Shown here: one piece after another, positions 15,820-46,930 of the stretch
Layout: every line of letters begins with the position of its first letter
How positions within the stretch are numbered: the stretch's first letter is position 1
DNA from: a virus
Reading direction: 5' to 3' (one strand)
DNA length: 64,000 nucleotides
IMG/VR virus record: IMGVR_UViG_3300029404_000062
Position numbers and translations under genes: made by a program
The notes under the pieces: generated by a model
Told to the model about the DNA's origin: nothing
What the model saw: only the letters and a program-made list of their open reading frames with translations
Database searches by the model: none

Positions 15820-15861
15820 AATTGCTCCTTTCCGCCGATCCTCTTCCGACCGGCTCTCGCT

Positions 15862-18210: not shown

Positions 18211-18367
18211 TCCTTTCTGCCCGTTTCTTCCTTTGGGCAGTCACATATTCCCTCTGTTTCGTGATATTATCAAGTTTTATCGGCGCAGAAAGACGGAGAA
18301 ATACCGCTCCGATTATTGTTCTATCTGCACGATATGTACCCCACCCTTGGCGGGTGGGGAGGTCTTA

Positions 18368-30428: not shown

Positions 30429-33400
30429 TTACTTGAAGACTGAATCATCCTCGTGGATCATGCCGTTGATCTTATCGGCAACGGTCTGTGCCAGTTCATC
30501 ATCGTTCCGGGCGTTATAGCCATTGACTGTGATATACACACCGCCAAGGTTGGTCGTCCGGGTGGTACCGCCTCCGGCCAGAGCTGTCCGCGGGAAGTTC
30601 CAGCCAGAGCCATCGAAGTGCGGCAGGGTCAGTTCCGGCAGACTGAAGGAACTGATGCCCTCCATACCCTGCTGCACCTTTGCTGCCATCGACTTGATCT
30701 GGCTGATCAGACTGCCTTCTCCTTTCTTGATGCCGCCGGAAAGCAGCTTCATGAAGTCCGGCATATAGGTGTCCGCATCTGCCAGAGGTCCTTCATCCGG
30801 TACCGAGAAGTGCAGGAACGATCGGATACCGCTTGCCACACTCTTGACCGCATTGCCGACCCAGCTGACGCCCTTTTTGATACCTCCGGCGATACCGCCA
30901 ACGATGTCTTTGCCCAAGCTGACCGCCGAGGAAGCCACATTCTTGATACTGCCCCAGATGGACGATGCCACATTGCCGATGGCAGATGCCGCATTGGAGA
31001 TTCCGTTCTTGATGGCATTGACACCGTTCGTGAATACAGAAGTGACCTTGTTCCAAATATTCGTCACACCCTCCCGGAAGCCATCGCAGTTTTTCCAGAG
31101 AGCGGTCAGTCCCAGACCGATGCCGCCAACGGCCGCCACTGCGATACCTGCAGGACCCGCCAGACCAGCAAGTGCTGTGCCTGCGGATGCGAGGAAACCA
31201 CCTGCGGAGCTTGCTACGCCTGCAAGAGCCGTACCCGCACCTGCCGCCAGACCAGATACGGCCGTGCCAACCGAACCGAACAGTCCTGCGATTGCGGAGC
31301 CGGCAGAACCAGCAATTCCGCCCAATGTGGACCCCACACCAGACAGAAGCCCGGAAAGACTGCCGCCTAAACCACCGATCTTCGATACCACACTGGAAAG
31401 CAGTCCGCCCAGATTCGACAGGATTCCACTGCCGCTGGAGCTAAGGCTTCCCAGCTTCGAGATAATGCCAGTGATGCCTTCTCCGAGACCGCCCATCTTG
31501 GAAGTCAACCCAGAGATCAGGTTGCCAAAGTTCGACACAATCTGACCGCCATCTGCACTGCCGATTTTCGACAGGAAACTGCCGATGTTGGACAGCAGAC
31601 CGCCGCCGTTCTCTGTGCCGAGAACATTGCCGAGGTTCTGCATCGTACTTCCAAGGTTTCCAATGGTGTTCTTCATGGAACCGAGCTTGTCCACAAGCCC
31701 CGTGACCGTATTGACCGTGTCACCGACCTTGCTGATGCCGTTGCCCAGGCTCTTTAGGAAATCCGAGTTGAAGGTATCGCCAAGGCTACGGATCGCATTC
31801 CCAAGGGAACTGGTCTGAGAGCTCAGCTCACCAATGGAATCCTTCATATCCGCAAAACCCTGCTTCACTTCATCGCTCATGCCACCGACTGCGGTTTTGG
31901 TGATACCCTGCAGGTCAGTCCAGAGCTGCTGGAACTGTGTTTTCAGACCGGAAAGCCCGGACATCAACTGGGACTGGATACCGCTGCCCACATCCCTTGC
32001 AGCACTACCGATACCGCTCTGACTTTTCTTGATCGTGGTGGCAAAACTGCCGACCACGGAATCCATCCAGTCGCCCAGAGAATCTACCGGGGTCGTGAGG
32101 TTGCTGCTCATAGCCCCAGCAAGTCCCTGCACGGCTTTCACCACCGACTTGACATTTTTCTTAATGCCGGTTGCCAGCAGCTTCATGAAGTCGGGCATAT
32201 AGGTATCTGCATCGGACAGAGGACCCTCGTCTGGTACAGAGAAATGCAACAGACTTCTAACCCTGCTTGCGACATTTTCTGCCGCTGCGATCACGGAACT
32301 AGCCGCTGCCCGGACACCTGCCGCCATCTGGGAACAGATATCTGCACCCCAGCGGTATGCCGAAGAAGCAATCGAACCGAGCGAGTTAAAGCTGCTCCTG
32401 ATACTTGCGACACCAGAAGAAACCGTGCTGCGCAGGCTGGACATTGCCGAAGACACCGTGGACTTGATGCCGTTGAAAGCAGAGGTCGTGGTGGATTTCA
32501 GGGAATTCCAGCCGCTCGTGACCGTACTGCGGACAGCTGTGACAGAAGAAGTCGTAAGAGACTTGATGCTGTTCCATGCTGTCGTAATGACTGTTTTGAT
32601 ACCATTCCAGCTGGTGTTTGTCAGAGTTTTCACTGCGTTCCATGCGCTTGTCATGGAAGATTTTACAGAAGCAGTCGCAGAAGTAGTCAGAGACTTGATT
32701 CCGTTCCATGCTGTAGTGATAACGCTCTTGATTCCGTTCCAGCTGGTCGTTGTCAGCGACTTCACTGCATTCCATGCACTGGTCATGGAAGATTTAACTA
32801 CCGCTGTCGCAGAGGTCACATTGGATCTCACCGCCGCAAAGCTGGTCTGGATGGTGGTCTTGATGCTGTTCCATGTGCTCGTGGTACTGGTCGTAATGGA
32901 GCTCCATGCGGATCTCATCGCGGCACTTACACCTGTCGTTCCGGTCTTCACCGTCTGGCTGATGGCTGCCCAGCTCTTACTGTATGCCTGCTCCACTCCC
33001 CTCATGGAGTTGGTGATGGAGGTAGACAGCGTGGTGGACAGGTTCTCTGCCGCCGCAGTCACAAGGCTGGTGTTGGTCGTGATGCCGTTTGCCAGACCCT
33101 GCATAAAGTCCGGCATCCAGCTTTCCATATCTGCCAGAGGTCCTTCATCCGGCACAGAGAAGTGCAGGAAGGAACGGATACGATCCGCCACTCCCGATAC
33201 GGCACTTGCCACATCCTGAATCCTCGACTGGATACCGGACACAATGTTGCCGATCATGTCAGAGCCCCACGAAAATGCCTGTCCAGCCAGACCCTTGATA
33301 AAGGAGACCGCACTGTTAAAGCCATTCGTGATGGTGGTCTTAATACCGGAAATCGTAGAGGAAATCCCGGATTTCATCGAGTTAAAGGCTGTGGTTGCCG

Positions 33401-36383
33401 CGCTCTTGATGCTGTTACTGAGGGACGAAACCGTAGACTTCATGGCATTCCAGCCGGAGGAAACCACCGATTTGATGCTGTTAACCACACCGGAGATCTT
33501 GCTGCTGATGGCGCTCCAGATGGAAGAAACCGTGGACTGGATCGCAGAAAGGACTGTCGAAATGACCGTCTTGATCGCATTCCATGCCGTACTCATCCTG
33601 GTTTGGATGCCAGTCAGCAGCGGAGACAGGAAGGATACAATGGCGTTCCACACCGTTGTCACTGCAGTCTGGATTGCTGTCAGCACCGTGGAGATAGCCG
33701 TCTGAATCGCTGACCAAACTGTAGAAAAAGTCGTCTGCAATCCAGTCAGCATCGGAGTCACGAAGGCAACGATGGCGTTCCAGATGGAAGTGATCTTCGT
33801 CTGAATTGCGGTCAGTGCTGCGCCGATCAGGATCTGGATCACCTGCCAGATAGTCTCAAACAGATATTTGAACGCATCCAACAGAGGTTTCATGGTGTTG
33901 TAGATGCCATTCCACACCGAAGTGATAGTCGTGCTGATGGTGTTCATGACCGTAGAGATCGCGGTCGAGATTGCCGTCCACACAGTTGTCACCGTGGTAT
34001 GGATTGTATTCATCACAGAAGAAACTGCTGTGGAAATGGCAGTCCAGATGGTGCTGAAGGTCGTCTGGATACTCGTAAGGACGGTGGTGAAAAATCCAGA
34101 CACTGCTGTAAATACAGTCGTTGCTACACTTTGGATAGCGGAAACTGTGTTTGAAAAGAAGCTGCTGATTCCACTCCACACAGTCTCGAAGAAGCTCTTG
34201 ATACTGCCCCAGACCGTCTGCCAGTCCGTACCGAACAGCCCAAGGAACACATCCAGCGCACTCTTCAGAGCAGTAAGGGTCATGGAGAAAATGGACTTCA
34301 CGCCATCCCAGATGCTGGAAAAGATACCCTTTACCGCTTCCCATGCGCCGCTCCAGTTGCTGGAGAACACATTGGAAAAGACATCAAACAAGCCGAGCAG
34401 CGTATCCAGAGCCGTACTCAATACCGTAGCCACAATCTGGAATGCTCCCTCAAACAGCGGTGCAAGCACCTGACAGAAGCCATCCCAGACTGCTTTCAGT
34501 ACCTCAGTTACATCCTTAAAATCAAAGCCCAGCCCGTTGATCCGCTGTATCAGCTGATCACAGAAGCCTTTCACCTTGGAAACGATGTCGTTCCAGATGC
34601 CGGTAATGGCAGCACGGAACTCCTCGTTGGTGTTCCAGAGATTCATAAAAGCCGCCACCAGCGTACCGATGACGGCCACTACAGCTACGACCGGCCCGGA
34701 CAGACCACCCAGAACCACACCCAGCTTGCTGAACACACCGCTGGCACTTCCCACGTGGGTGATGAGAAGCCGGACACCCTTTGCAAGAGAACTGAACCCC
34801 CGCATCGCGGTGCCGACGGTCGATATGGTCTTGCCCAGCACAATGAGCAGCGGACCAATGGATGCCGCCAGCAGCCCGATCTTGATGATCGTTTCCCTGG
34901 TACTTTCATCCATACTGTTCAGCTTGTCCACGAACTGCTGCACGGCAGATACGATCTTACGGATGGTCGGCATCAGGATATCACCAAAAGAAATGGCCAG
35001 CTCTTCCAACTGAGATTTCAGAATGGTGAGCTGACCATTTAAATTGTCCTGCATGGTCTCTGCCATGCTTTCGGATGCACCATCGCAGTTTTCAATGGCT
35101 CCACGCAGTTTGTTGATGTCCGTTTCGCTGGAATTCATCAAGGCAAGGAATCCGGACATAGCATTTTTGCCGACCAGTGCCTCAGCGTTGGCGGCCTTCT
35201 CAGATTCCGACAGCCCGGAAAATGCCACACGGCAGTCCGCAAGGATGTCGTTCAGGCTTCTCATGCTGCCATCTGCGTTGCTGGTCGCAATCGTGACCTC
35301 ACCAATGTTTTTACCCACAAAGGTCACTTCACCGGAAAGGTTGTTCATGATGGTACGAAGGGACGTACCAGCCTGCGAAGCCTTGATACCACTATTTGCC
35401 ATCAGACCGATGGCTTCTGCGGTATCCTCTGCCGAGAATCCCAGCGCACCGGCGATAGGTGCACAGTACTTGAACGTCTCGCCCATCATGGAGACATTGG
35501 TGTTCGCATTGGAAGAAGCAGCTGCAAGGATATCTGCAAAATGCCCGGAATCCGCAGCAGATAAGCCGAACGCGGTAAGGGCATCCGTGACGATATCCGA
35601 AGTCGTAGCGAGGTCTTCACCGGATGCCGCCGCAAGGTTCATGATACCCTCGATGCCGTTCAGCATGTCAGAAGTCTTCCATCCGGCCATGGCCATGTAT
35701 TCCATCGCCGAAGCTGCCTCGGATGCAGAGAACTTGGTCTTTGCACCCATCTCACGGGCTTTTGCACGAAGCTGGTCAAAGTCATCTCCTGTCGCACCGG
35801 AAATGGCAGAAACCTTACTCATCTCGGAATCAAAATCTGCTGCTGTCTTTACTGCGGCCGTACCAAGACCCGTTACAGCGGCAGTCACCGGCAGGAACTT
35901 CTTACCAACATTCTCCACAGAAGATCCGATGTTCTGGAGCTTTTCTCCGGCTTCATCGATTTTGGCAAGAGTCGCATTGGTAGTAGCCGCCTGGTCCTGT
36001 AAGGATCGCAGATTCTGTTCGGTCTCCACGATCTCACGCTGGAGGGCATCGTACTGCTGCTGGGTGATCTCACCGTTGGCAAGCTGCTCATTCGCCTGCT
36101 GTGCCGCAGTCTTCAGAGTTGCCAGCTTTTCCTTGGTAGCTTCAATGGCATCCTTAAGCATCTTCTGCTTCTGGACGACCAGTTCTGTATTGGAGGGGTC
36201 CAGTTTCAGGAGTTTGTTGACATCCTTCAGTCCGGACTGCGTCCCCTTGATTGACTTGTTTACACTTTCCAGTGCTTTGGAGAGCTTTGTGGTATCGCCG
36301 CCGATCTCAACGGTGATGCCCTGGATTCTGGATGCCATATGGATGACCACCTCCTTTTGGGCATGAAAAAAGCCCATCTGCAC
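30429..36383 (-). CDS. Tape measure protein, 1984 aa, with extensive internal degenerate repeats.
   Basis: Size, position after the G/GT chaperones, coiled-coil N-terminus, Gly-rich segments, and repeats of ...TIWTAISTAVSSVMNTI... type. Confidence 0.85.
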   Translation of the reverse strand: MQMGFFHAQKEVVIHMASRIQGITVEIGGDTTKLSKALESVNKSIKGTQSGLKDVNKLLKLDPSNTELVVQKQKMLKDAIEATKEKLATLKTAAQQANEQLANGEITQQQYDALQREIVETEQNLRSLQDQAATTNATLAKIDEAGEKLQNIGSSVENVGKKFLPVTAAVTGLGTAAVKTAADFDSEMSKVSAISGATGDDFDQLRAKAREMGAKTKFSASEAASAMEYMAMAGWKTSDMLNGIEGIMNLAAASGEDLATTSDIVTDALTAFGLSAADSGHFADILAAASSNANTNVSMMGETFKYCAPIAGALGFSAEDTAEAIGLMANSGIKASQAGTSLRTIMNNLSGEVTFVGKNIGEVTIATSNADGSMRSLNDILADCRVAFSGLSESEKAANAEALVGKNAMSGFLALMNSSETDINKLRGAIENCDGASESMAETMQDNLNGQLTILKSQLEELAISFGDILMPTIRKIVSAVQQFVDKLNSMDESTRETIIKIGLLAASIGPLLIVLGKTISTVGTAMRGFSSLAKGVRLLITHVGSASGVFSKLGVVLGGLSGPVVAVVAVIGTLVAAFMNLWNTNEEFRAAITGIWNDIVSKVKGFCDQLIQRINGLGFDFKDVTEVLKAVWDGFCQVLAPLFEGAFQIVATVLSTALDTLLGLFDVFSNVFSSNWSGAWEAVKGIFSSIWDGVKSIFSMTLTALKSALDVFLGLFGTDWQTVWGSIKSFFETVWSGISSFFSNTVSAIQSVATTVFTAVSGFFTTVLTSIQTTFSTIWTAISTAVSSVMNTIHTTVTTVWTAISTAISTVMNTISTTITSVWNGIYNTMKPLLDAFKYLFETIWQVIQILIGAALTAIQTKITSIWNAIVAFVTPMLTGLQTTFSTVWSAIQTAISTVLTAIQTAVTTVWNAIVSFLSPLLTGIQTRMSTAWNAIKTVISTVLSAIQSTVSSIWSAISSKISGVVNSIKSVVSSGWNAMKSTVSSLSNSIKSAATTAFNSMKSGISSTISGIKTTITNGFNSAVSFIKGLAGQAFSWGSDMIGNIVSGIQSRIQDVASAVSGVADRIRSFLHFSVPDEGPLADMESWMPDFMQGLANGITTNTSLVTAAAENLSTTLSTSITNSMRGVEQAYSKSWAAISQTVKTGTTGVSAAMRSAWSSITTSTTSTWNSIKTTIQTSFAAVRSNVTSATAVVKSSMTSAWNAVKSLTTTSWNGIKSVITTAWNGIKSLTTSATASVKSSMTSAWNAVKTLTNTSWNGIKTVITTAWNSIKSLTTSSVTAVRSTVTSGWNSLKSTTTSAFNGIKSTVSSAMSSLRSTVSSGVASIRSSFNSLGSIASSAYRWGADICSQMAAGVRAAASSVIAAAENVASRVRSLLHFSVPDEGPLSDADTYMPDFMKLLATGIKKNVKSVVKAVQGLAGAMSSNLTTPVDSLGDWMDSVVGSFATTIKKSQSGIGSAARDVGSGIQSQLMSGLSGLKTQFQQLWTDLQGITKTAVGGMSDEVKQGFADMKDSIGELSSQTSSLGNAIRSLGDTFNSDFLKSLGNGISKVGDTVNTVTGLVDKLGSMKNTIGNLGSTMQNLGNVLGTENGGGLLSNIGSFLSKIGSADGGQIVSNFGNLISGLTSKMGGLGEGITGIISKLGSLSSSGSGILSNLGGLLSSVVSKIGGLGGSLSGLLSGVGSTLGGIAGSAGSAIAGLFGSVGTAVSGLAAGAGTALAGVASSAGGFLASAGTALAGLAGPAGIAVAAVGGIGLGLTALWKNCDGFREGVTNIWNKVTSVFTNGVNAIKNGISNAASAIGNVASSIWGSIKNVASSAVSLGKDIVGGIAGGIKKGVSWVGNAVKSVASGIRSFLHFSVPDEGPLADADTYMPDFMKLLSGGIKKGEGSLISQIKSMAAKVQQGMEGISSFSLPELTLPHFDGSGWNFPRTALAGGGTTRTTNLGGVYITVNGYNARNDDELAQTVADKINGMIHEDDSVFK

Positions 36384-36423
36384 GGAGCAGACAGGCTAAA
36401 AATGGGTATAAAAATACCCTGCC

Positions 36424-36450
36424 AGCTTTCACCAGCAGGGTTGATTAGAA
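36424..36450 (-). terminator. Terminator hairpin immediately downstream of the DUF234 ATPase gene.
   Basis: CCCTGCCAGCTTTCACCAGCAGGG stem-loop, followed on the minus strand by a T-rich run. Confidence 0.5.
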
Positions 36451-36453
36451 TTT

Positions 36454-37851
36454 TTACTTGTAAAGGTCTTCCAGCGTTATCAGCCGAACTTCACCTCGCT
36501 CTTGTGCCTGAAGAAGTCCATCTGTGAATCCGCCTTTCGAGAAGATATAGTAGTGATAGTTGTTGCCCTTTCCAAAAACTGAAGCATAATCCCGAATCAA
36601 ATCGAGTTCATCCACACCGATTTTCTCATTCCGGTATTTGCATGAACCGATGATATAGTCTTTGCCCTCAACAGGAGTTCCGACGATATCAATCTGTATC
36701 TGCTTTTTCTTCTTCGGGTCTGTCCCCCACCACTGGCCGATTTCACTCAGCTCAATAGGAAGGCTATCCGAATAATAGAGCAGGTAATCCTGACACATCT
36801 TCTCATAAATTAGACCCATGTAATCAGGAAGATACTGCTTTACAGCGTGTGGATAGGTCTTTGCAATTCTGCCAGAGTCAATGGCACTCATATTGATTGG
36901 CACAAACCGATACCAGAAACGGAAGAAGTTATCAGCCAGCAGATAGATGGTTTTCTTACCCGGTTTTTCTGTAATCGGTGTTTCTTTCTTCGCAATGCCA
37001 AGGTCGATCAGCGTTTTCAGGTACTTCGATACGACCGAGTTTTCCTCGCCGACCTTCATCTTGATATCGTTCATTCGGGAAGCACCTTCTGCAATCGCTT
37101 TAATGATTGCATTATAAATGGCCGGCTCCCGGAGTTCCTGCTTCAGTAAGTTCCCCGGTTCCTCATACAGATAGCTGGAGCGGTCAAAGAAATTATCCAA
37201 CAGAGCTTCATCCACACTATCTCGCACATCCAACTTATTGATATAGTGGGGAACTCCTCCCGTGATTCCATAAATCAGGGAATTGTCTTCTGCAGACAGA
37301 TTTGGGTGGAACACAGCGGTTTCTTTATAGTCTAGCGGCTCAATCTTAAACTGTCCAGTACGTCTGCCATACAACGGACTTTCCTTTCCAAGCACCTGAC
37401 TCTCCATGAAGCTCATAGAGGAGCCGCAAAGAATCAGGTACATCTTGGACTCTGTCCATTTGTGGTCGATGATGTGCTGCAGCATCGCTGAAATAGCTGG
37501 TTTTGCTTTTGCAAGATAAGGATACTCATCAATGACAAAGACAATCCTCTTTTCCTTTGAAAGTGCTGTCAGCTCATCCAAAGCTGCATCATAGGACCTG
37601 AACTCCGGTGCAGACTCCATATCCGGCCGCTCAAAACTCATAATCGACTTTGAGAGAGCTTCCAGATTTTCCTTTCCTGTCGTGTTCAATGCAGAAAAGA
37701 AAATGGTAGGCTTATCTTTGCAGAACTCGTTGATCAGTGCCGTTTTACCAACACGCCGTCTGCCGTAGATGACAATGCACTCAAACTTATCACCTGCATA
37801 CCGTTTATTCAGTTTCCGCAGCTCATCCTCACGGCAATAGAATTGACTCAT
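36454..37851 (-). CDS. AAA+ ATPase of the COG1672 type (Arch_ATPase domain + C-terminal DUF234, predicted nuclease-like). Low-GC moron inserted between the tail chaperones and the TMP.
   Basis: Walker A GRRRVGKTAL, Walker B VFVIDEYPYL. ~44% GC against ~57% in flanking phage genes. Own promoter and terminator. Confidence 0.7.
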   Translation of the reverse strand: MSQFYCREDELRKLNKRYAGDKFECIVIYGRRRVGKTALINEFCKDKPTIFFSALNTTGKENLEALSKSIMSFERPDMESAPEFRSYDAALDELTALSKEKRIVFVIDEYPYLAKAKPAISAMLQHIIDHKWTESKMYLILCGSSMSFMESQVLGKESPLYGRRTGQFKIEPLDYKETAVFHPNLSAEDNSLIYGITGGVPHYINKLDVRDSVDEALLDNFFDRSSYLYEEPGNLLKQELREPAIYNAIIKAIAEGASRMNDIKMKVGEENSVVSKYLKTLIDLGIAKKETPITEKPGKKTIYLLADNFFRFWYRFVPINMSAIDSGRIAKTYPHAVKQYLPDYMGLIYEKMCQDYLLYYSDSLPIELSEIGQWWGTDPKKKKQIQIDIVGTPVEGKDYIIGSCKYRNEKIGVDELDLIRDYASVFGKGNNYHYYIFSKGGFTDGLLQAQERGEVRLITLEDLYK

Positions 37852-37911
37852 CTGCTCACCTCCAATAATTACACTCGTGAGTTAGTAACTCGTAAGTTAC
37901 TTCTTTACGAG

Positions 37912-37943
37912 TATAATAAATCAGATAGTCTGCAAAGTCAAGT
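37912..37943 (-). promoter_or_regulatory. Near-consensus sigma-A promoter driving the DUF234 ATPase moron.
   Basis: Minus-strand TTGACT, 17-nt spacer, TATTAT, followed by a 5'-UTR hairpin CTCGTAA...TTACGAG and RBS GGAGGTG. Confidence 0.5.
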
Positions 37944-37959
37944 AAAATAAGTCGAACCT

Positions 37960-38187
37960 TTAGAATCGATCGAAGTCCGACTGACTTGCCAGCTCTTTGT
38001 ACGGATAGTCGTCGTTCTGCCGCTCTGTGAACATATCATTGACCAACCCGATGGTCAGCAGGTCGAGGTCGGCAATGCTGATACCGAGCTGTACACAGCG
38101 CAGCAGAAAGAGCGGGGTGGTCATTTCCCGCTCACTTTTTCGAGGTTTTTTCTGGATTCCACCTCCGTCTGCACATTCAGGCCCCAC
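37960..38187 (-). CDS. Tail assembly chaperone T segment. Expressed as a G-T fusion by -1 programmed frameshift.
   Basis: ORF in the -1 frame overlaps the 3' end of the G gene. Frame arithmetic and reading after the slippery site give KKPRKSEREMTTPLF, matching this ORF. Confidence 0.65.
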   Translation of the reverse strand: MGPECADGGGIQKKPRKSEREMTTPLFLLRCVQLGISIADLDLLTIGLVNDMFTERQNDDYPYKELASQSDFDRF

Positions 38188-38501
38188 AGTTCGATCAGCT
38201 GGGGCAGGATCTGGTAGATGGAGAAGGTGTTGAACTGGTCCAGGAACTCCTCCGGGCTGTCCGGCACATTCGCAGGGTCAGCATGACGGGCCATCAACCA
38301 TGCCAGGTCCTCGAACATCTCCAGACTGAAAAGGTCGAGGTTGGAATTGTCCTCATCGTTCTCCCCTACGCTCTTTTCCAGCTGGCGCAAGTCTTTGTAA
38401 ATGTCACGGCCGAACTTGATACGGTACAGGCGGGGTACAGCGGCACTTGCCTTAAAGGTGACTTCCTTGCCATCGATCTCGATTTTCTTTGTAACTGCCA
38501 T
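38121..38501 (-). CDS. Tail assembly chaperone G.
   Basis: Start MAVTKKIEIDGKEV with RBS GGAGG. Sits in the conserved position between the major tail protein and TMP. Acidic C-terminus. Confidence 0.7.
   Translation of the reverse strand: MAVTKKIEIDGKEVTFKASAAVPRLYRIKFGRDIYKDLRQLEKSVGENDEDNSNLDLFSLEMFEDLAWLMARHADPANVPDSPEEFLDQFNTFSIYQILPQLIELWGLNVQTEVESRKNLEKVSGK
38145..38151 (-). promoter_or_regulatory. -1 programmed ribosomal frameshift slippery heptamer A_AAA_AAC (mRNA sense) in the G/GT overlap. A second G_AAA_AAG lies 9 nt downstream.
   Basis: Zero-frame codons AGA AAA AAC CTC GAA AAA GTG. Shift to -1 yields the T ORF. Confidence 0.6.
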
Positions 38502-38567
38502 AATCGTAATCCTCCAAAATTTCATGTAAAATTGGCAGAGCCGAAGCCCTGCCATATATCGTGTTTC

Positions 38568-39395
38568 TTACTCTGCCGGGTCAATGCTCACCAGTGCATT
38601 ACTGCCACTCACAGTCGGCAGCTTTCCATCCCACTTCTGGATCTTCTGGTAATCGATCAGCGTATCGGACAGGCTTTCTGCCAGTTTGCGGTTTGCCTCT
38701 GCCTGTGCATCTGCGGCAATGGAAGTCTTCTGGGCTTCTGCCTCTGCATTGGTGATCGCCACCTGCTTATCGGCTTCTGCCTTGGCAATGGCGGCTTCGT
38801 TCTCGATCTTCTGCTTATCTGCGTTCTGCTGTGCAATGGACTTCTGCTGGATGGCGGCATTGTAGGCTTCCTCGAAATTCATGTCGTTGACGACGACCTT
38901 GTTTACGAACACAACATCCTCACCATATTTCTGCACAAGGGACTCTGCCAGCTTCTGCTGTGCCAGAGGCTCGATCTTGGTACGGTTGGTTACCTCATTG
39001 GGACCAAGTTCTGCCATCGCAGACTTGATTGCCGATGCCACTAACTCATCACCGACCAGATTCTTGATGTCGGACACATTCGCATACAGCCATGCGCTCT
39101 TTTCAGGAAGCACCTGATAGGTCACGATGACATCAGCGGCATACACAGGAGTCTTGTCGGAGGCTTCGCCCCAGACCTGCGCCTCGATATGCTTATCCTG
39201 CTGCTTGTTGTTGACCTTATGGATGCTCTGCACAAAAGGAATGCAGAAATTGAGCTTGCCACTCTGGATGGTGGTCTCCTGGATCTGACCAAAGCTGGTC
39301 TTCACGCCGGTGTAGCCGGTGGGAATGATGTGGAACGAACAGATAGCCAGCACCAGAACGATGATCACTGCGAACAAAGGAAAAATCTTCTTCAT
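38568..39395 (-). CDS. SPFH/band-7 (prohibitin/HflC-like) membrane protein. Moron between the major tail protein and chaperone genes.
   Basis: N-terminal TM helix IFPLFAVIIVLVLAICSF, SPFH core, C-terminal Ala/Glu/Lys-rich coiled-coil (AEAEAQKTSIAADAQAEANRKLAE). Confidence 0.7.
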   Translation of the reverse strand: MKKIFPLFAVIIVLVLAICSFHIIPTGYTGVKTSFGQIQETTIQSGKLNFCIPFVQSIHKVNNKQQDKHIEAQVWGEASDKTPVYAADVIVTYQVLPEKSAWLYANVSDIKNLVGDELVASAIKSAMAELGPNEVTNRTKIEPLAQQKLAESLVQKYGEDVVFVNKVVVNDMNFEEAYNAAIQQKSIAQQNADKQKIENEAAIAKAEADKQVAITNAEAEAQKTSIAADAQAEANRKLAESLSDTLIDYQKIQKWDGKLPTVSGSNALVSIDPAE

Positions 39396-39457
39396 AATCG
39401 TATACCTCTTTATAATAATGTAAGCAGAGCCAAAGCCCTGCGGTGTGTGCCGGTCAC

Positions 39458-40072
39458 TTAGCCCTGCGGCTCCTCGGTGTGACTGGTGTCTTCAGTGTCC
39501 ACAGCTTCTGCCTGCGGCTCATAGACCGCATCGTACCACTTGTTATAGACATCATCGGTGGTGTTGGTGCCGGTCTTTGCCTTAACATAACCGTTTGCCA
39601 GAGGGGTTGCCTGCAGGTTCAGGGTGTCCGTCTTGACTTCCTTGCTGTCCTCATTGGTCTCACCCTCGATGGACGGACGGCTTGCCACACAGTTGTACAG
39701 CACATGACGGATGTGGCGCTGGTCGCCATCGAACTCAAACAGGAATGCGAAATGCTCCAGTTCCACGTTGGCGTTCTCAGCAAGCACGCCATTGCCATCC
39801 AACTCCTCGTGCATGATGTCCGTGAGGAAGCTCTCCGGGATCAGCGCGATCTCCAGATCCCCCTCATAGCCGGAGTTGTTATTCACGACATAGTAGGCGA
39901 TATTGTCCGCATAGAACGGCTCGATCTCGCCATTGGCATCCATAGAAAGACTGACGGCACCGGGAATACGGACCGGCTTTGCATAGGTGACACTGCCATC
40001 TTCGTCAAAGGTCGCCTTGGCATAATGGCAGTTTTTCAGGCCAAATTTGACCTTATTGCTTTTCTTCGACAT
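39458..40072 (-). CDS. Major tail protein.
   Basis: Position upstream of the chaperones. N-terminus MSKKSNKVKFGLKNCHYAKATFDEDGSVTYAKPVRIPGAVSL is typical of siphovirus major tail proteins. 204 aa. Confidence 0.7.
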   Translation of the reverse strand: MSKKSNKVKFGLKNCHYAKATFDEDGSVTYAKPVRIPGAVSLSMDANGEIEPFYADNIAYYVVNNNSGYEGDLEIALIPESFLTDIMHEELDGNGVLAENANVELEHFAFLFEFDGDQRHIRHVLYNCVASRPSIEGETNEDSKEVKTDTLNLQATPLANGYVKAKTGTNTTDDVYNKWYDAVYEPQAEAVDTEDTSHTEEPQG

Positions 40073-40106
40073 AGTGTTCCTCCCATAAAAATATCCTGCA
40101 TGAGCA

Positions 40107-40424
40107 TCACACAGTCAGCTCATACAGGACTTCATACATCTTTTCGGTTTCGATCCAGACCTCGCTTTTCTCATAGTAGAGTTCGTGTGCGGTCAGGACT
40201 TCTTCAATGCTTGCTTCCATATCCGAGTCTTTGTAATCGGTGTACACCTCAATGTCCAGCCGGTTAAAGTGGTGGTACACAAGGTTATCTGCACCGAAAT
40301 TCTCGGCTTTCGGATACAGGAAACAGATAAACGGTGGATCAGGGCTCTCCCCTTCTGCGAAATGGTCATACGCATAGGGAAGCCCCATCTCCTCCACCAG
40401 AGCTTTTACTTCTTCATGGGTCAT
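40107..40424 (-). CDS. Hypothetical phage protein, possibly tail terminator/completion (by position).
   Basis: Position only; 105-aa acidic protein. Confidence 0.3.
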   Translation of the reverse strand: MTHEEVKALVEEMGLPYAYDHFAEGESPDPPFICFLYPKAENFGADNLVYHHFNRLDIEVYTDYKDSDMEASIEEVLTAHELYYEKSEVWIETEKMYEVLYELTV

Positions 40425-40434
40425 TGGTTCCTCC

Positions 40435-40812
40435 TTACTTTAGTGCCTTTTCGATGAGAGACTGGAGCTGCTCGATACCGGCCTGCTCTGCCGGGGCAAT
40501 ATGGGGTCTTGCTGCCACCCGGCCGCCGCCGCGCTTGGCATGACCTTTTTCCAGCAGATGTGCCAGCTGGTAGCGGTTTTTGGAATGCACCACCATCTGA
40601 AGGCTCTGGCTGGACTCCGACTGCTTGGTCGCCGCCCAGCTTCCCTTGTACGCGCCCGTCCGGGACGGTGCATTGGCCGAGATCTGGTCTTTGACCGTTT
40701 TGGCAGACTTACGGACAGCACTTTTCACCTGCGCGGAAGCAAGCGTTGCATATTCTTTTAAGCCCTCGTTTATGGCATCTGCCATCTCATCAATGCTGAC
40801 GGTTCTGCTCAT
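40435..40812 (-). CDS. HK97 gp10-family head-tail joining/tail component protein.
   Basis: 125 aa; the ...YQLAHLLEKGH... block resembles the gp10 family; conserved gene order. Confidence 0.5.
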   Translation of the reverse strand: MSRTVSIDEMADAINEGLKEYATLASAQVKSAVRKSAKTVKDQISANAPSRTGAYKGSWAATKQSESSQSLQMVVHSKNRYQLAHLLEKGHAKRGGGRVAARPHIAPAEQAGIEQLQSLIEKALK

Positions 40813-41507: not shown

Positions 41508-42713
41508 TTAGCCCTGCGGTGCCATCTGCAGAAGCTGTACGGCTTCGGGCAGGATCAGCTTGCCATCCACACGCTGGGTGGTCAGGAAACCGACCTGATC
41601 AGTACGGGCATACAGCTCGTTCAGACGGCGGAAGGTGCGGTTCTGGCGGTCAGCCACCCAGTAGTAGCTGTAATCGCCAAAGGCCATGACCTTGCTGCCA
41701 CCCTTGATCTCCGGCATGAAGGCGGAAGTCTTCAGTGGACGGTTCAGCAGGGTATCCGGCTTGCCGATCTCCAGACCCGGCTTCCAGATATAGTTGCCGT
41801 TGTTGTCCTTGATGGTCATCAGCTGCAGCACCAGGGCTTCGTTGCAGAGGAACTGTGCCTTCTTGCGGTAAGGAGCCTTCAGTGCATAGTAGAGCTTGAA
41901 GATCTCATCAAAGGACACAGCATCCTTCTGGGCGGCGGTCACACCGACCTTGGCACCGCCGGTCTCAGCCAGCAGACCCAGAGGCTTGCCCACACCGTCA
42001 CCAGTGATAAAGGCACGCTCCTCTGCGTTGCCCATACGCACACCGAAACGGCGGGCAATATAGGTGGCGAGGTCAAAAGCGGAGTCATTCAGCAGCTCGT
42101 TGGAGATCTTGATCATAGTGCCCAGCTTGTACGCAGACAGCATGGTCTGACCGAAAGTGGTATCGCTCTCCGGGATCTCCTCACCCTCATCGATCCAGCT
42201 TGCCTCGCCGGTATCCTCAGCGATAGGGATCTTGCGGGTGCCGGAGCTGGTGCGGATGACAGTCGCCAGGCCACGGAAGATGTTGTTCTCTTCCAGTGCC
42301 TCCACCAGCTTCTTCTCGAACTCATCCGGGACAGTGAAGCCGCCCTCGGTATCCTCGCCCACAGACAGTGCATTGCGGACCTCGCCGTAATGGCCACGGT
42401 TGCGGATCATGTTCCAGAAGTTCTCGGCATACTCGGCAGTGGCGGTCGGCTTGACATCCTTCTTGCTGCCGTTCTTCGGGTCAGCATGGACAGGATTGGA
42501 AGTCGGTGCGGACAGCTGTGCCTCGATCTGTGCCTGCTGCTCCAGACGCTCGATCTCTGCACCCAGGTCCTTGACCTCCTGTGCCATCTTGTTGTACTGC
42601 TCCACGGCCTCAGCCTTTACCAGACCGTTCTCGCCGCGGTTCTTCTCCAGAAAGTCCTTGGTCTGCTCCCAGAGAGTGTTGCGCTTGGTGCGCAGTTCCA
42701 GAATCTTACTCAT
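41508..42713 (-). CDS. Major capsid protein, HK97 fold.
   Basis: 401 aa; follows the prohead protease; blocks ...KLGTMIKISNELLNDS..., ...FITGDGVGKPLGLL... typical of HK97-type MCP. Confidence 0.8.
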   Translation of the reverse strand: MSKILELRTKRNTLWEQTKDFLEKNRGENGLVKAEAVEQYNKMAQEVKDLGAEIERLEQQAQIEAQLSAPTSNPVHADPKNGSKKDVKPTATAEYAENFWNMIRNRGHYGEVRNALSVGEDTEGGFTVPDEFEKKLVEALEENNIFRGLATVIRTSSGTRKIPIAEDTGEASWIDEGEEIPESDTTFGQTMLSAYKLGTMIKISNELLNDSAFDLATYIARRFGVRMGNAEERAFITGDGVGKPLGLLAETGGAKVGVTAAQKDAVSFDEIFKLYYALKAPYRKKAQFLCNEALVLQLMTIKDNNGNYIWKPGLEIGKPDTLLNRPLKTSAFMPEIKGGSKVMAFGDYSYYWVADRQNRTFRRLNELYARTDQVGFLTTQRVDGKLILPEAVQLLQMAPQG

Positions 42714-42770: not shown

Positions 42771-43670
42771 TCACTTCATGCACTCAAGCTGTTTCATCAG
42801 GATATTGTAGGGAATGCTGCCATCCTCGGTCTTTCCGTCCATGTCAAGGACAGGACCGGAATTGGCAGGTGGTTCAGCCGGAGGGGTAGGCTCTGCGGAC
42901 GGTTTCGGGTCAGCAGGTGGCTCCTTCGGCTCAGTGTGTTTCTGGCCCACATCTTCCGGCTTCACACCCAGACGGTTCAGGACGATTAGATCCATCTGAC
43001 GGCTGGAGAAAAGGTGCCCTGCCGTATCCTTCTGGAACGGCTTCTTTTCTTCGCCCTCGCCCGGTTCACTGTCAGGGTCTTCTTCCGGATTCTCCGGATC
43101 TGCCGGGTCACTGTCCGGCTCTTCCTCTTTCTTTGCAAAGAGGATCTCATCTGCAAAGCCCAGCTCCACCGCCTTCTTCGCATTCATCCAGGTCTCATTG
43201 CTCATGAGGTTGGCGATGCGGGCATGGCTGAGTCCGCTCTTTGCAGCATAGGCATTGATGATGCTCTCCTTGACTTCGTTCAGCACCTCGATGGCCTTCT
43301 CCATGTCCTTGGTGTTGCCCATCGCAACGGTGCTGGGGTCATGGATCATCAGCATGGCGACAGGACTCATCTGGACAGTATCACCGGCCATTGCGACAAC
43401 AGATGCCGCCGAAGCTGCAATCGCATCGATCTTGACCGTGATGCTGCCCTTGTAATCCTTAAGCATGGTATAAATCTCGGCGGCGGCGAACACATTTCCG
43501 CCCGGACTGTTGATCCAGACGGTCACATCCCCCTCGCCGGATTCCAGCTCATCCCGGAACATCTGCGGCGTGATCTCATCGCCCCAGAAAGATTCCTCAT
43601 CGATGGGTCCTTCCAGCCGGAGAATTCTGGTGTCATCACTGTTTTTGATCCAGTTCCAGAATTTCTTCAT
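42771..43670 (-). CDS. Prohead maturation protease (ClpP/S14-like) with acidic scaffold-like C-terminus.
   Basis: WINSPGGNVFAAAEIYTML...IDAIAASAASVVAMAGD...MLMIHDPS carries the ClpP-family catalytic-centre pattern. Confidence 0.8.
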   Translation of the reverse strand: MKKFWNWIKNSDDTRILRLEGPIDEESFWGDEITPQMFRDELESGEGDVTVWINSPGGNVFAAAEIYTMLKDYKGSITVKIDAIAASAASVVAMAGDTVQMSPVAMLMIHDPSTVAMGNTKDMEKAIEVLNEVKESIINAYAAKSGLSHARIANLMSNETWMNAKKAVELGFADEILFAKKEEEPDSDPADPENPEEDPDSEPGEGEEKKPFQKDTAGHLFSSRQMDLIVLNRLGVKPEDVGQKHTEPKEPPADPKPSAEPTPPAEPPANSGPVLDMDGKTEDGSIPYNILMKQLECMK

Positions 43671-45064
43671 CGGGTTCTCCTTCCTGTTTTTTGTGGCTTA
43701 CTCTCACTCAGCCGGTTATCGCTGTCAGGTTCGTCTTCCGGGTCGGGCTGTGTCTGTTTCGGCTGATTCTGCTGGACTGCGGCAGCTTTATTCTGCTGTG
43801 CCACTCCTGCATCTTTCAGCTTCACATAGCCGCCGTTCAGATAATAATCGTCACCGCCCTCCTCTGCCGGGATGAGATCCATGTTCTCCAGACGATGCAC
43901 ATCATTCGGAGAGAGGAAGCCGTTACTGATGCCGGTCGCATAACCGTTCATCCGGCTCTGGTAGTCACCACGGAGCAGACCGTCCACATTGAATTTCGGG
44001 AAGTAGGTGTCCTGCTCCTCTTCCAGCAGCAGATCCTTGATGATGCCCTGCTCGATGCGGACAAGCCACGGGGTCAGGGAGTGCATCACGAAGTTCAGCG
44101 ACTGGTATTCAATGTTGGAGAAGGTCGCCCTGGACAGATCGGCTACCAGATGCGGAGGCACACGGAAGATGCGGCAGATCTCCGTCACGGAAAACTGCTT
44201 CGTTTCCAAAAACTGGCTGTCCTCCGGTGGCAGGGAGATTGGTTTGTAGGCCATGCCCTCTTCCAGCACAGCCACACGATGGGCATTGGCTGCACCGCCA
44301 TAAGCCGCCTCCCAGCTATCCCGGATACGGTTCGGGTCTTTTACAACGCCGGGATGCTCCAGCACACCGCTGGGCTGTGCGCCGTTCTTGAAGAAGGAGG
44401 AACCGTATTTATCTACCGCAATGGAAGTGCCGAGGCTGTTCTTCATCATAGCGATTGGCGAGAAACCGATCAGGCCATTAAACCCAAGCCCCGGCACATG
44501 AAAGATCTCGTCCCGGCGGAAGTAGAGGTCCTTGTTCTGTTCTCCCGGAACTTCATCCGTGTATGCGTGGTAGATATAGTAGAGCTCGCCACTCTCATCT
44601 CGGTCCACTTCGACATTTTCCGGCATCAGCGGATACAGACCCAGCACCGTATTCTTGCCATCTCGGACGATCTGCGCGTAAGCGTTGCCCCAGAGAAGCA
44701 GGTGGGTCATCAGCGTTTCCCAGAAGACAAAGGATGTCATCTCCGGGTTGGGCTGGCGATACAGGATCTTGTACAGCGGATGATCCCGTGCCTTTTCCTT
44801 GTTGCCGTTGTCGTCTGTCACCCGGTAGAGATGCAGCGGCAGTGCCGCAATGGACTCTGCCAGCAGACGAACACAGGCATACACGGTCGGGATCTGCATG
44901 GCGGCTTTCTCATCCACCTGCTCCCCGGCATTGGAACGGCCAAACACAAAGGTCTGCCCGGAATCGCGGACATTATCCGTGACCTGCGGCAGACCTTCTT
45001 TTGGCTGTTCTGTTTTGGGAGAATCCCTTGGGTTCTCAAACCCCATCCATTCCCAGAATCCCAT
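43667..45064 (-). CDS. Portal protein (HK97-family).
   Basis: 465 aa between terminase and protease; start overlaps the protease stop by 4 nt. Confidence 0.75.
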   Translation of the reverse strand: MGFWEWMGFENPRDSPKTEQPKEGLPQVTDNVRDSGQTFVFGRSNAGEQVDEKAAMQIPTVYACVRLLAESIAALPLHLYRVTDDNGNKEKARDHPLYKILYRQPNPEMTSFVFWETLMTHLLLWGNAYAQIVRDGKNTVLGLYPLMPENVEVDRDESGELYYIYHAYTDEVPGEQNKDLYFRRDEIFHVPGLGFNGLIGFSPIAMMKNSLGTSIAVDKYGSSFFKNGAQPSGVLEHPGVVKDPNRIRDSWEAAYGGAANAHRVAVLEEGMAYKPISLPPEDSQFLETKQFSVTEICRIFRVPPHLVADLSRATFSNIEYQSLNFVMHSLTPWLVRIEQGIIKDLLLEEEQDTYFPKFNVDGLLRGDYQSRMNGYATGISNGFLSPNDVHRLENMDLIPAEEGGDDYYLNGGYVKLKDAGVAQQNKAAAVQQNQPKQTQPDPEDEPDSDNRLSESKPQKTGRRTR

Positions 45065-45304: not shown

Positions 45305-46930
45305 TCAAAAAACGATCATGTCACGTTCGTCGTAGACGCTTCCCTGCTGCTGTCCTTCGTTTCGGATGCAGCGGTCCAGTGCCATGATCGCAGCGACGAT
45401 ACCATCGATTTTCTCCGGCGATTTTGCCTTTGTCGGCTTGATATTGCCTGCCGGGTCGGTATCCACGACCACATTCCCCGCCATCCATGCCATGACCGGA
45501 TTGCCGCCGTGGGTAATACGCCCTTCCATCAGGAGCTTGTAGAACTCCTTGGTGGGCGGGCTCATATCTTTGAAGCCCTGTCCGAAAGGTACGACTGTGA
45601 ATCCCATCCCCTCAAGATTCTGGGTCATCTGCACGGCTCCCCATCGGTCAAAGGCAATCTCTAAAATGTGATAGGTCTTACCCAGCTCCTCGATGACTTT
45701 CTCGATAAATCCGTAGTGAATGACATTGCCTTCTGTCGCCATCAGATACCCCTGCTGATACCAGACATCATACGGAACGGATGCCCTGCGCACACGCTGG
45801 GGGATCGTGTCCTCCGGTATCCAGAAGAAAGGAAGCATGATGTACTTTTCTTCTGGGATTCTCGGTGGGAACATCAGCACAAAAGCTGTGATGTCTCCGG
45901 TGCTGGACAAGTCCAGACCTCCATAACAGTCACGGCCTTTCAGGACTTCCATATCAATGGGCTGGTTGCCCAGATTGTAGATGTGTTCCGGGATAAACCG
46001 GGTCAGCGATGCAACCCACATATTCAGACGAAGCTGCTTGAACACATTCTCCTCTGCCGGGTTGTCCAGTGCTTCCTGGTACGCATCCCGGACACGCTGT
46101 ATCTGGATGGTCTGGCCCAATGAGGGGTTTGCCTTATACCAGTTGGCTTCATCGTGCCAGTCATCCTCATCGGTCAAACCGTAGACCACGGGGTAGAAAG
46201 TGTGGTCGATCTTATGTCCGGCCAACAGGTCAAGGGCTTTCATGTGGAGCTCGTAGCAGATGCTCTCCTTGTCCGTGCCGGCCGTGGTGATCAGGAAGAA
46301 CAGCGGCTGTTCACGGGCATCACCGGAACCTTTGGTAAGGACATCGTAGAGTTTTCGGTTTGGCTGGGCATGAACCTCATCCAGCACCAGACCTGACACG
46401 TTCAGACCGTGCTTCGTACCAACTTCGGCAGACAGAACCTGATAAAATCCTGCGTTCCCGTAGTTCACGATGCGCTTGGTGGCTGCCATGATCTTGCACC
46501 GTTTCAAAAGTGCCGGGGTCATCTGCACCATCTGGTGGGCAACATCAAAAACAATGGATGCCTGCTGGCGGTCAGCCGCCGCACCATAGACTTCGGCAGA
46601 TGGCTCATTATCGGCAAAAAGCAGATACAAGGCCACCGCAGCGGCAAGCTCAGATTTGCCGTTCTTCTTGCCGATTTCGACATAAGCCGTGCGAAACTGA
46701 CGGTTTCCCTTTTCATCCACGATGCCAAACACATCCCGGATGATCTGCTCCTGCCAAGGGAGAAGCCAGAACCGCTTGCCTGCCCACTTACCTTTGGTAT
46801 GACGCAGGTTTTCGATAAAAGTCACTGCCCGGTCTGCTTTTGCGGCATCGTAATGGCAGGTCGGAAGCATGAACCGGCTGGGTTTGTAGTCCTTTAGTTT
46901 CGGATAGTTTTTCGGTCTGCACTCTGCCAT
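45305..46930 (-). CDS. Terminase large subunit.
   Basis: 541 aa; ATPase region ...KRFWLLPWQEQIIRDVFG... and Walker-type LVLDEVHAQ; nuclease C-terminus. Confidence 0.85.
   Translation of the reverse strand: MAECRPKNYPKLKDYKPSRFMLPTCHYDAAKADRAVTFIENLRHTKGKWAGKRFWLLPWQEQIIRDVFGIVDEKGNRQFRTAYVEIGKKNGKSELAAAVALYLLFADNEPSAEVYGAAADRQQASIVFDVAHQMVQMTPALLKRCKIMAATKRIVNYGNAGFYQVLSAEVGTKHGLNVSGLVLDEVHAQPNRKLYDVLTKGSGDAREQPLFFLITTAGTDKESICYELHMKALDLLAGHKIDHTFYPVVYGLTDEDDWHDEANWYKANPSLGQTIQIQRVRDAYQEALDNPAEENVFKQLRLNMWVASLTRFIPEHIYNLGNQPIDMEVLKGRDCYGGLDLSSTGDITAFVLMFPPRIPEEKYIMLPFFWIPEDTIPQRVRRASVPYDVWYQQGYLMATEGNVIHYGFIEKVIEELGKTYHILEIAFDRWGAVQMTQNLEGMGFTVVPFGQGFKDMSPPTKEFYKLLMEGRITHGGNPVMAWMAGNVVVDTDPAGNIKPTKAKSPEKIDGIVAAIMALDRCIRNEGQQQGSVYDERDMIVF

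Follow-up and report, generated by a model that had tools for sequence, protein, structure and literature searches.

We examined a gene for a 275-aa SPFH/Band_7 membrane protein in a 64,000-nt stretch of viral DNA (IMG/VR record IMGVR_UViG_3300029404_000062; hereafter the window, meaning the whole stretch), which comes from an HK97-like temperate siphophage of gut Clostridia whose late module genes in this region are all on the - strand. The SPFH gene (38568-39395, -; assigned by Pfam Band_7, PHROG 200, an AlphaFold 2 (AF2) model and Foldseek) has the major tail (tube) protein gene as its upstream neighbour (39458-40072, -; PF06488, 1.7e-7; PHROG 88, 6.7e-59) and a G-like tail assembly chaperone gene as its downstream neighbour (38121-38501, -; PHROG 709, 8.4e-40), in agreement with a sequence-only reading of the same DNA that had put it between major tail protein and chaperone. 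The G/GT identity of the downstream gene is confirmed by an A_AAA_AAC slippery heptamer in its zero frame (38145-38151, -; read from the sequence and two overlapping open reading frame (ORF) translations) together with an overlapping -1-frame extension, a GT-like product open to 37960 (PHROG 3033, 2.8e-23), and the position of the chaperone ahead of the tape measure is kept in relatives. Another candidate slippery site, GGGAAAT, was dropped on a frame check, the canonical zero-frame heptamer being A_AAA_AAC at 38151-38145.

Two short spacers separate the SPFH gene from these neighbours, and each carries one hairpin. The upstream spacer (39396-39457, -; 62 nt, between the tube stop and the SPFH ATG) consists of the hairpin, a TTACAT box, a ribosome-binding site (RBS) and ACGATT before the SPFH ATG, while the downstream spacer (38502-38567, -; 66 nt, between the SPFH stop and the chaperone ATG) consists of the hairpin, a TTTACAT box, the RBS GGAGGA and ACGATT before the chaperone ATG.

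Two spacers with a shared hairpin and translation start

The hairpins share an 18-nt motif, GCAGAGCC(G/A)AAGCCCTGC on the + strand, found at 38535-38552 and 39424-39441 in copies that are 17/18 identical. The sequence-only reading had reported a 19-nt motif on both sides of the gene; both copies are indeed present, although the motif is 18 nt long and the end coordinates first given were 1-2 nt overlong. These are the only good matches in the window, as tolerating up to 3 mismatches adds just one unrelated 3-mismatch site at 3116, and at that tolerance 0.15 matches are expected in the shuffled window, with 0 of 100 shuffles reaching three or more. On the mRNA (-) strand the motif reads GCAGGGC-UU(C/U)G-GCUCUGC, a GC-rich stem of 7 bp (9 bp for the downstream copy). 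The downstream hairpin (UGGCAGGGC-UUCG-GCUCUGCCA, followed by AUUUUACAUG; 38533-38554, -, with the 18-nt core at 38535-38552) folds at -17.7 kcal/mol (z -3.5); the upstream hairpin (GCAGGGC-UUUG-GCUCUGC; 39424-39441, -), whose 7-bp stem includes one G-U pair, also forms, yet its 68-nt context is unexceptional (z -1.3). A simple intrinsic-terminator scan flagged the downstream copy as terminator-like, with a tail of only AUUUUACAUG, and did not flag the upstream copy. Because the chaperone and tape-measure genes lie behind the downstream hairpin, transcription must pass through it.

The likeness between the spacers is not confined to the hairpins. The two align lengthwise, and past the hairpin both continue with T(T)TACAT, an RBS (GAGG) and ACGATT-ATG, these post-hairpin segments being significantly similar in a permutation test (p ~0.008); for the pre-hairpin segments the same test found no significant similarity (p 0.45). 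Since the likeness extends through TACAT box, RBS and ACGATT-ATG, the repeated unit appears to be a functional spacer, more than a hairpin. In other lineages the post-hairpin test gave p 1e-4 for L146 and 0 of 20,000 shuffles for L209; in L218 and L221 the flanking hairpins are unlike in sequence and the post-hairpin similarity is not significant.

Two other identities for the hairpins were considered. Rfam 15 covariance models run over 36300-40500 gave no match at the hairpins, the only hit being a sub-threshold sRNA at 36312-36457 (21 vs 100 bits). A reading as integron cassettes with attC-like sites was rejected on inspection of the sequences: the stems are short, perfectly paired and GC-rich and are closed by tetraloops, R-box cores are missing, and an integron integrase is absent. 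At ~18338-18365 (-), where the late operon closes and just behind the stop codon of the endolysin gene, stands a third GC-rich hairpin, CCCCACCC-GCCAA-GGGTGGGG; TACAT comes directly after it, which is the same layout as on both SPFH flanks.

Relatives with and without the SPFH gene

A census of distinct tube-to-chaperone intervals over all fetched IMG/VR relatives revealed that the gene can be present or absent at the same junction (72 vs 38 distinct intervals). The 38 SPFH-less intervals comprise 25 with 0-20 nt and no hairpin and 13 with a single 54-63-nt spacer containing one hairpin; in most of these 13 the 18-mer is identical and sits inside a 9-10-bp stem. Among the latter, L241 has a chaperone 87% identical to that of the window, no SPFH gene, and a single spacer of the downstream type, with the hairpin plus TACATGAAATGGAGGA (GTTTACATGAAATGGAGGA). 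GenBank phages from human faeces labelled Candidatus (Ca.) Heliusvirales, whose tube and chaperone are 60-68% identical to those of the window, are likewise without SPFH, and in them the tube and chaperone genes stand 1-13 nt apart. Close relatives with the gene are numerous: at least 130 IMG/VR loci have an SPFH gene of 88-99% identity, and its position is the same in each. The idea put forward from the sequence alone, that an intergenic hairpin was duplicated when the gene was inserted, gained ground here: relatives without the insert show either a single hairpin copy, in 13 distinct spacers that include L241, or none, in 25, these relatives being diverged or mosaic lineages only.

In every SPFH-bearing lineage found (the window clade, a clade at 86-90%, and L209, L218 and L221 at 82%, 78% and 72%), both flanks of the gene carry the hairpin, (C)TACAT and an RBS. 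The stem sequences vary among lineages with pairing kept, G-U changing to A-U or G-C and A-U to G-C. The two spacers of L209 are near-identical to one another and unlike those of the window, and in L146 and L085 the upstream spacer resembles the downstream type, patterns that suggest occasional gene conversion between the two spacer copies. Outside the tail module, the closest SPFH homolog found (P0085, locus L216, 74% identity) stands in a run of small genes behind a Bro-N/ANT gene of an unrelated AT-rich phage, with spacers of 8-11 nt and no hairpins; because hairpins are missing around this homolog, the hairpin would belong to the recipient junction, not to the cargo. Judged by these sequence comparisons, a duplication footprint around the SPFH gene is well supported.

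The census did not support a general insertion hotspot at the tube/chaperone junction, where SPFH was the only cargo, bar an extra ORF in L076 and a fusion in L127. In L076, a 231-aa ORF with HNH_3 and AP2 domains (homing-endonuclease-like) lies between the SPFH downstream hairpin and the chaperone, where it takes the original RBS position, and a new RBS precedes the chaperone. In L127, a rearranged variant, only the first ~148 residues of SPFH are left, joined in frame to a sequence that has a sigma-70 region-4 domain at its end.

The phage lineage with SPFH at this junction is related to the GenBank phages labelled Ca. Heliusvirales, and its hosts are gut Clostridia (Blautia, Faecalibacterium, Clostridium fessum), with cultured strains of all three genera carrying the SPFH gene in prophages. 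Two of the loci, L201 (Blautia faecis DFI.3.66) and L208 (Faecalibacterium intestinale CLA-AA-H281), share 98% nucleotide identity over 20.8 kb even though their hosts presumably belong to different families, a near-identity that reflects either a very broad host range, a recent transfer or contamination.

Age of the insertion and selection on the gene

Protein identity to the window falls in step for SPFH and chaperone across lineages (SPFH/chaperone 97-99/98-100%, 85-90/78-82%, 82/80%, 78/77% and 72/71%), which fits one old insertion followed by vertical descent. Against the window sequence, the ratio of nonsynonymous to synonymous substitution rates (dN/dS) was 0.04-0.08 for SPFH, 0.007-0.03 for the tube and 0.015-0.024 for the chaperone, each at a dS of ~0.3; purifying selection on SPFH is thus strong, with dN/dS close to the tube and chaperone values. 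Within the close clade the spacers show a mean pairwise difference of ~0.05 per site vs dS ~0.3 and are therefore far more conserved than synonymous sites, so that the spacers themselves are constrained. A few contigs (L135, L185, L186, L143) carry an internally deleted or frameshifted SPFH gene. In decayed prophages from isolate genomes or metagenome-assembled genomes (L202, L204, L206, L213), connector and tube are deleted, and SPFH, whole or in part, directly adjoins the capsid or tail-terminator gene.

The SPFH protein and its homologs

Domain, alignment and structure searches agree on the nature of the product. Pfam Band_7 (PF01145) matches residues 23-209 at 62.4 bits vs a gathering cut-off of 23.6 (7.6e-17), PHROG 200 matches at 3e-39, and the best sequence matches in the PDB are prohibitin-2, QmcA, HflC and HflK (E 1e-6 to 4e-3). 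The AF2 model, whose confidence is limited by an input alignment of sequences 72-100% identical, places a transmembrane helix at residues 5-20, an SPFH beta/alpha domain at 21-173, a helix of ~80 residues at 175-253 and a disordered tail, and Foldseek returned full-length matches to the cage-forming SPFH proteins prohibitin, HflK/C, QmcA, erlin and stomatin as well as to SPFH proteins from phages and giant viruses. The description first drawn from the translation, of a membrane-anchored SPFH protein with a long Ala/Glu/Lys helix, is thus borne out by the Band_7 match, the alignment and the model. An N-terminal MKK is conserved ahead of the hydrophobic helix in the alignment of homologs, and a C-terminal YQKIQKWDGKLP is invariant down to a homolog at 37% identity. 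The PHROG 200 label 'lipoprotein' was rejected for this protein, as Cys19 is not conserved (homologs have R, Q, S, T or N in its place) and a canonical lipobox is missing; an uncleaved N-in/C-out anchor with an HflK/C-like orientation is predicted instead, by analogy and by the positive-inside rule, which the conserved MKK fits.

The nearest known counterparts are HflK/HflC and prohibitin, whose cages enclose FtsH/m-AAA proteases, and which share with the window protein a single N-terminal anchor, SPFH domain, long coiled-coil helix and short C-terminal tail, the predicted N-in/C-out orientation, and the best sequence and fold matches among solved structures. They differ in that the phage SPFH is only 15-23% identical to them, stands alone where they come as a K/C or PHB1/2 pair, and is phage-encoded in a monoderm host. 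The NCBIfam HflC cut-offs were not reached (NF008259, 30.6 vs 427 bits; TIGR01932, 21.9 vs 134.4 bits), and by its sequence the window SPFH is not an HflC/HflK orthologue. Pfam and PHROG scans of the ORFs at 18.4-46.9 kb gave no second SPFH subunit, a Band_7 match being found for this gene alone.

SPFH-NfeD operons (QmcA-YbbJ, archaeal stomatin-STOPP) offer another comparison, since there too SPFH shares one transcription unit with a ClpP-fold serine protease. Here, however, the partner would be the normal prohead protease of HK97-type phages (CLP_protease, 119 bits; NfeD1b_N, 22.1 bits vs a cut-off of 40), and no Pfam match to an NfeD-type membrane or OB-fold domain was found for it. We rejected an NfeD-SPFH pairing with the prohead protease, as the NfeD match is sub-threshold and the same protease occurs in SPFH-less relatives.

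The protein belongs to a large family, with 156 clusters at the 50%-identity level at E <1e-30 and 1,142 at E <1e-10, and in human-gut metagenomes single 90%-identity SPFH clusters hold hundreds to >3,000 sequences. Phage Band-7-like proteins of PHROG 200, from Rhizobium phage Pasto, Streptomyces phage StarPlatinum, the T4-like phages RB43, 44RR and Aeh1, and Vi01-like phages, share its domain family and fold; unlike them, the window gene lies between the tube and chaperone genes of a temperate siphophage and is flanked by a duplicated spacer, and the 'lipoprotein' label fits it poorly. Four homologs that we looked up (43-55% identity; loci among L308-L314) all lie in non-structural regions of 62-117-kb phage-like contigs, and three of the four adjoin RtcB, DNA/RNA ligases, a Pnkp-like enzyme, NAMPT/NAD synthase or Macro. 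Such RNA-repair, NAD-salvage and Macro-type neighbours are gene types often linked to counter-defence. Phage SPFH/Band-7 genes have been reported repeatedly with no function known (PMC1524935, PMC3220722, PMC13239085); our literature search found no function given for phage SPFH proteins, and a 2026 paper states that their role 'remains unclear' (PMC13239085).

Transcription of the gene and the neighbouring cargo slot

A sigma-70 consensus scan of the upstream spacer found no - strand site of at least 9/12 that could serve as a promoter for SPFH, and with no promoter of its own the gene most likely relies on transcription of the late structural operon. The sequence TTTACA-16-TACGAT at 38530-38503 was rejected as a promoter and taken as a chance match: it is downstream of SPFH, only 2 nt separate its end from the chaperone ATG, and other lineages do not conserve TACGAT.

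The late module reads, all on the - strand, terminase (45305-46930), portal (43667-45064), ClpP-type prohead protease (42771-43670), capsid (41508-42713), genes for connector and head completion, tail terminator (40107-40424), tube, SPFH, chaperone, an ATPase_2/DUF234 gene (36454-37851; PADLOC PDC-S27) and a tape measure of 1,969 aa (from the ATG at 36338; 30429-36338), with distal tail genes, holin and endolysin beyond it; two large serine recombinases lie at 13519-18210. The run of tube, chaperone and tape measure, usually contiguous, is thus broken twice, by SPFH and by the ATPase gene.

The two interruptions behave differently. The SPFH slot always holds SPFH across relatives, whereas the adjacent chaperone/tape-measure slot exchanges its cargo. 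In the window this second slot (36339-37959, -) holds the ATPase_2 and DUF234 gene (PADLOC PDC-S27, 2.8e-56), which has its own 10/12 promoter at 37941-37913 and two strong terminators at 36441-36416 and 36397-36371, the canonical moron layout. In phages with >95% identity in the flanking genes the same slot carries a YoeB or ParE toxin-antitoxin, Abi_2, DUF3990 or a group II intron reverse transcriptase, or is empty; it carries AbiEii in a relative at 81% (L242), and an ABC-type ATPase is also seen among relatives. From the loci read for this slot (L163, L200, L201, L212, L218-L221, L227, L228, L242, L249, L120), the junction between chaperone and tape measure is a hotspot of highly variable cargo.

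Morons, described for example in the lambda and HK97 work of Hendrix and colleagues, have in their canonical form their own promoter and are expressed from the prophage, and the HK97 gp15 moron sits between chaperone and tape measure. The SPFH gene resembles them in being an extra gene in some phages only, placed between two conserved late genes with a terminator-like hairpin downstream, and differs in that the consensus scan found no promoter of its own. The sequence-only reading had linked the gene to defence on the ground that SPFH proteins recur in such contexts. That link did not hold up, as PADLOC-DB v2 returned 0 families for SPFH at E <=0.01, no promoter was found in the spacer scan, the slot is invariant and the homologs looked up lie in non-structural regions; a defence interpretation of SPFH is not supported.

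A favoured explanation and its alternatives

Taking these observations together, we lean towards reading the gene as a late-operon accessory membrane scaffold that derives from a single old insertion and acts on the membrane during the lytic cycle, an explanation that we consider, as a whole, somewhat better placed to be right than wrong. An HflK/C- or prohibitin-type SPFH gene would have entered the tube/chaperone spacer once, long ago, at a time when the recipient spacer already had a stable GC-rich UUCG hairpin and an RBS. The insertion would have left a copy of the whole spacer, from stop codon to ATG, on either side, with the result that SPFH and chaperone would each retain a hairpin and a translation start. 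The hairpins are probably leaky terminators or stabilisers of mRNA 3' ends, so that expression would step down behind the abundant tube protein, and SPFH would be expressed with the late structural operon. One N-terminal helix is predicted to anchor the protein in the cytoplasmic membrane, with the SPFH domain and coiled coil on the outer side, where by analogy with solved SPFH complexes it might assemble into a ring or cage. Acting on the infected cell's membrane in the lytic cycle, the protein may cage or arrange a membrane protein of the host, such as an FtsH-type protease, or keep the membrane stable up to lysis. Of these elements, we regard the anatomy, the duplication footprint, the age, the purifying selection, the class of fold and the distribution across phages as shown; the topology, the oligomeric cage, the timing of expression and the cellular target are inferred.

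Several points weigh against this explanation. As regards the duplication, the empty site was not found in close relatives by an exact-pattern scan that linked the end of the tube gene to the start of the chaperone gene over 40-70 nt, a weak negative given that exact matching was required, and the SPFH-less relatives from which the duplication is deduced are all diverged or mosaic lineages. The exact 18-mer GCAGGGCTTCGGCTCTGC is also the core of a terminator-like hairpin in at least 60 unrelated IMG/VR viral contigs (e.g. L084, L092, L096, L102, L122, L125, L166, among L084-L197), where it forms the tip of longer stems with a T-run just past stop codons in many environments, as compared with 13 contigs for a stem-permuted control 18-mer. 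Because the 18-mer is shared by unrelated contigs, hairpin identity alone is weak evidence for common descent; the generic intergenic motif that the sequence-only reading had named as an argument against its own idea is thus found across the viral collection, although not within this genome. As regards expression and function, the promoter scan was a crude sigma-70 consensus match, the two strong terminators at 36441-36371 inside the operon imply antitermination or other regulation, the AF2 model is moderate (predicted local distance difference test (pLDDT) 71, predicted template-modelling score (pTM) 0.48) and of a monomer only, and the topology rests on the positive-inside rule and analogy. 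Two of the four large contigs with homologs carry a Phage_integrase-family gene, and lytic phages encode superinfection-exclusion proteins too, so that presence in large contigs is compatible with an exclusion role.

Three alternatives bear on these points, of which the one that concerns the hairpins would make them not duplicates at all but independent generic terminators or stabilisers, the downstream one having come with the SPFH cassette or converged (C(UUCG)G being favoured). Convergence is possible given the frequency of the 18-mer relative to its control, the flanks of L218 and L221 differ without significant post-hairpin similarity, and some large-phage SPFH homologs also have a hairpin behind the gene. 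What makes us think this reading decidedly improbable is that three lineages show significant likeness past the hairpin (TACAT box, spacing, ACGATT-ATG), that the hairpin-TACAT-RBS layout recurs on both flanks in every SPFH-bearing lineage, that SPFH-less relatives can show exactly one such spacer at the same junction, and that the nearest out-of-context homolog was found without hairpins. The gene could instead serve as a structural or assembly factor of the tail, perhaps a membrane platform for an unusually long tape measure and tail, as its place between tube and chaperone genes, its probable co-transcription with them and purifying selection as strong as that on structural genes would allow. 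Complete tape measures are moreover ~1,860-2,020 aa in SPFH-bearing lineages (L201, L200, L212, L213, L118, L163) vs ~900-1,076 aa in all SPFH-less relatives (L002, L106, L120, L260-L293), a correlation that is, however, essentially one phylogenetic split. Against a tail factor we count that homologs of 43-74% identity are located away from tail modules and that no SPFH protein is known to act in virion assembly; of the alternatives this is the one we find hardest to credit.

The remaining alternative keeps the duplication and changes the role, with SPFH made in lysogens or early after infection as a prophage superinfection-exclusion protein that blocks entry of incoming DNA, perhaps by caging a membrane protein used by the tape measure. 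Such a role would suit a strongly conserved membrane protein that is predicted to face outward, is an accessory gene absent from related phages and adjoins a slot of defence-type cargo, and tail-operon insertions can encode exclusion proteins, HK97 gp15 being an example. It accords less well with the absence of a PADLOC match and with the absence of a promoter-like site for expression from a repressed prophage, when a 10/12 promoter and two terminators accompany the neighbouring ATPase cargo. The slot never changes its gene next to one of fast turnover, members of the family are seen outside the structural regions of large phage-like contigs, and the literature searched offers no functional link, the role of phage SPFH proteins being described as one that 'remains unclear' (PMC13239085). 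We therefore regard exclusion as unlikely, and a prophage-expressed defence role as less likely than a lytic-cycle one.

The favoured lytic-cycle scaffold can be carried one step further, to an idea that we offer as speculative and rather improbable. PHROG 200 SPFH proteins in general might form a widespread lytic-cycle 'membrane guard', an outer-face homo-oligomeric cage that would sequester an FtsH-type protease or prevent premature membrane collapse, including collapse caused by membrane-targeting Abi effectors, and would thereby secure burst size. If true, this would explain the counter-defence-like neighbours in large contigs, the purifying selection in a late operon and the slot without turnover.

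Significance

Reports of SPFH/Band-7 genes in phage genomes go back to at least 2006, with no role assigned, and the window SPFH is a new, well-placed member of this known group of phage SPFH proteins. For now it is more an annotated curiosity than a discovery. It nevertheless provides a tractable case, being an abundant gut gene with prophages in cultured hosts, strong purifying selection and natural SPFH-less relatives, and its duplicated spacer represents a clean footprint of a gene slotted into the most conserved gene run of siphophages with the translation signals intact.

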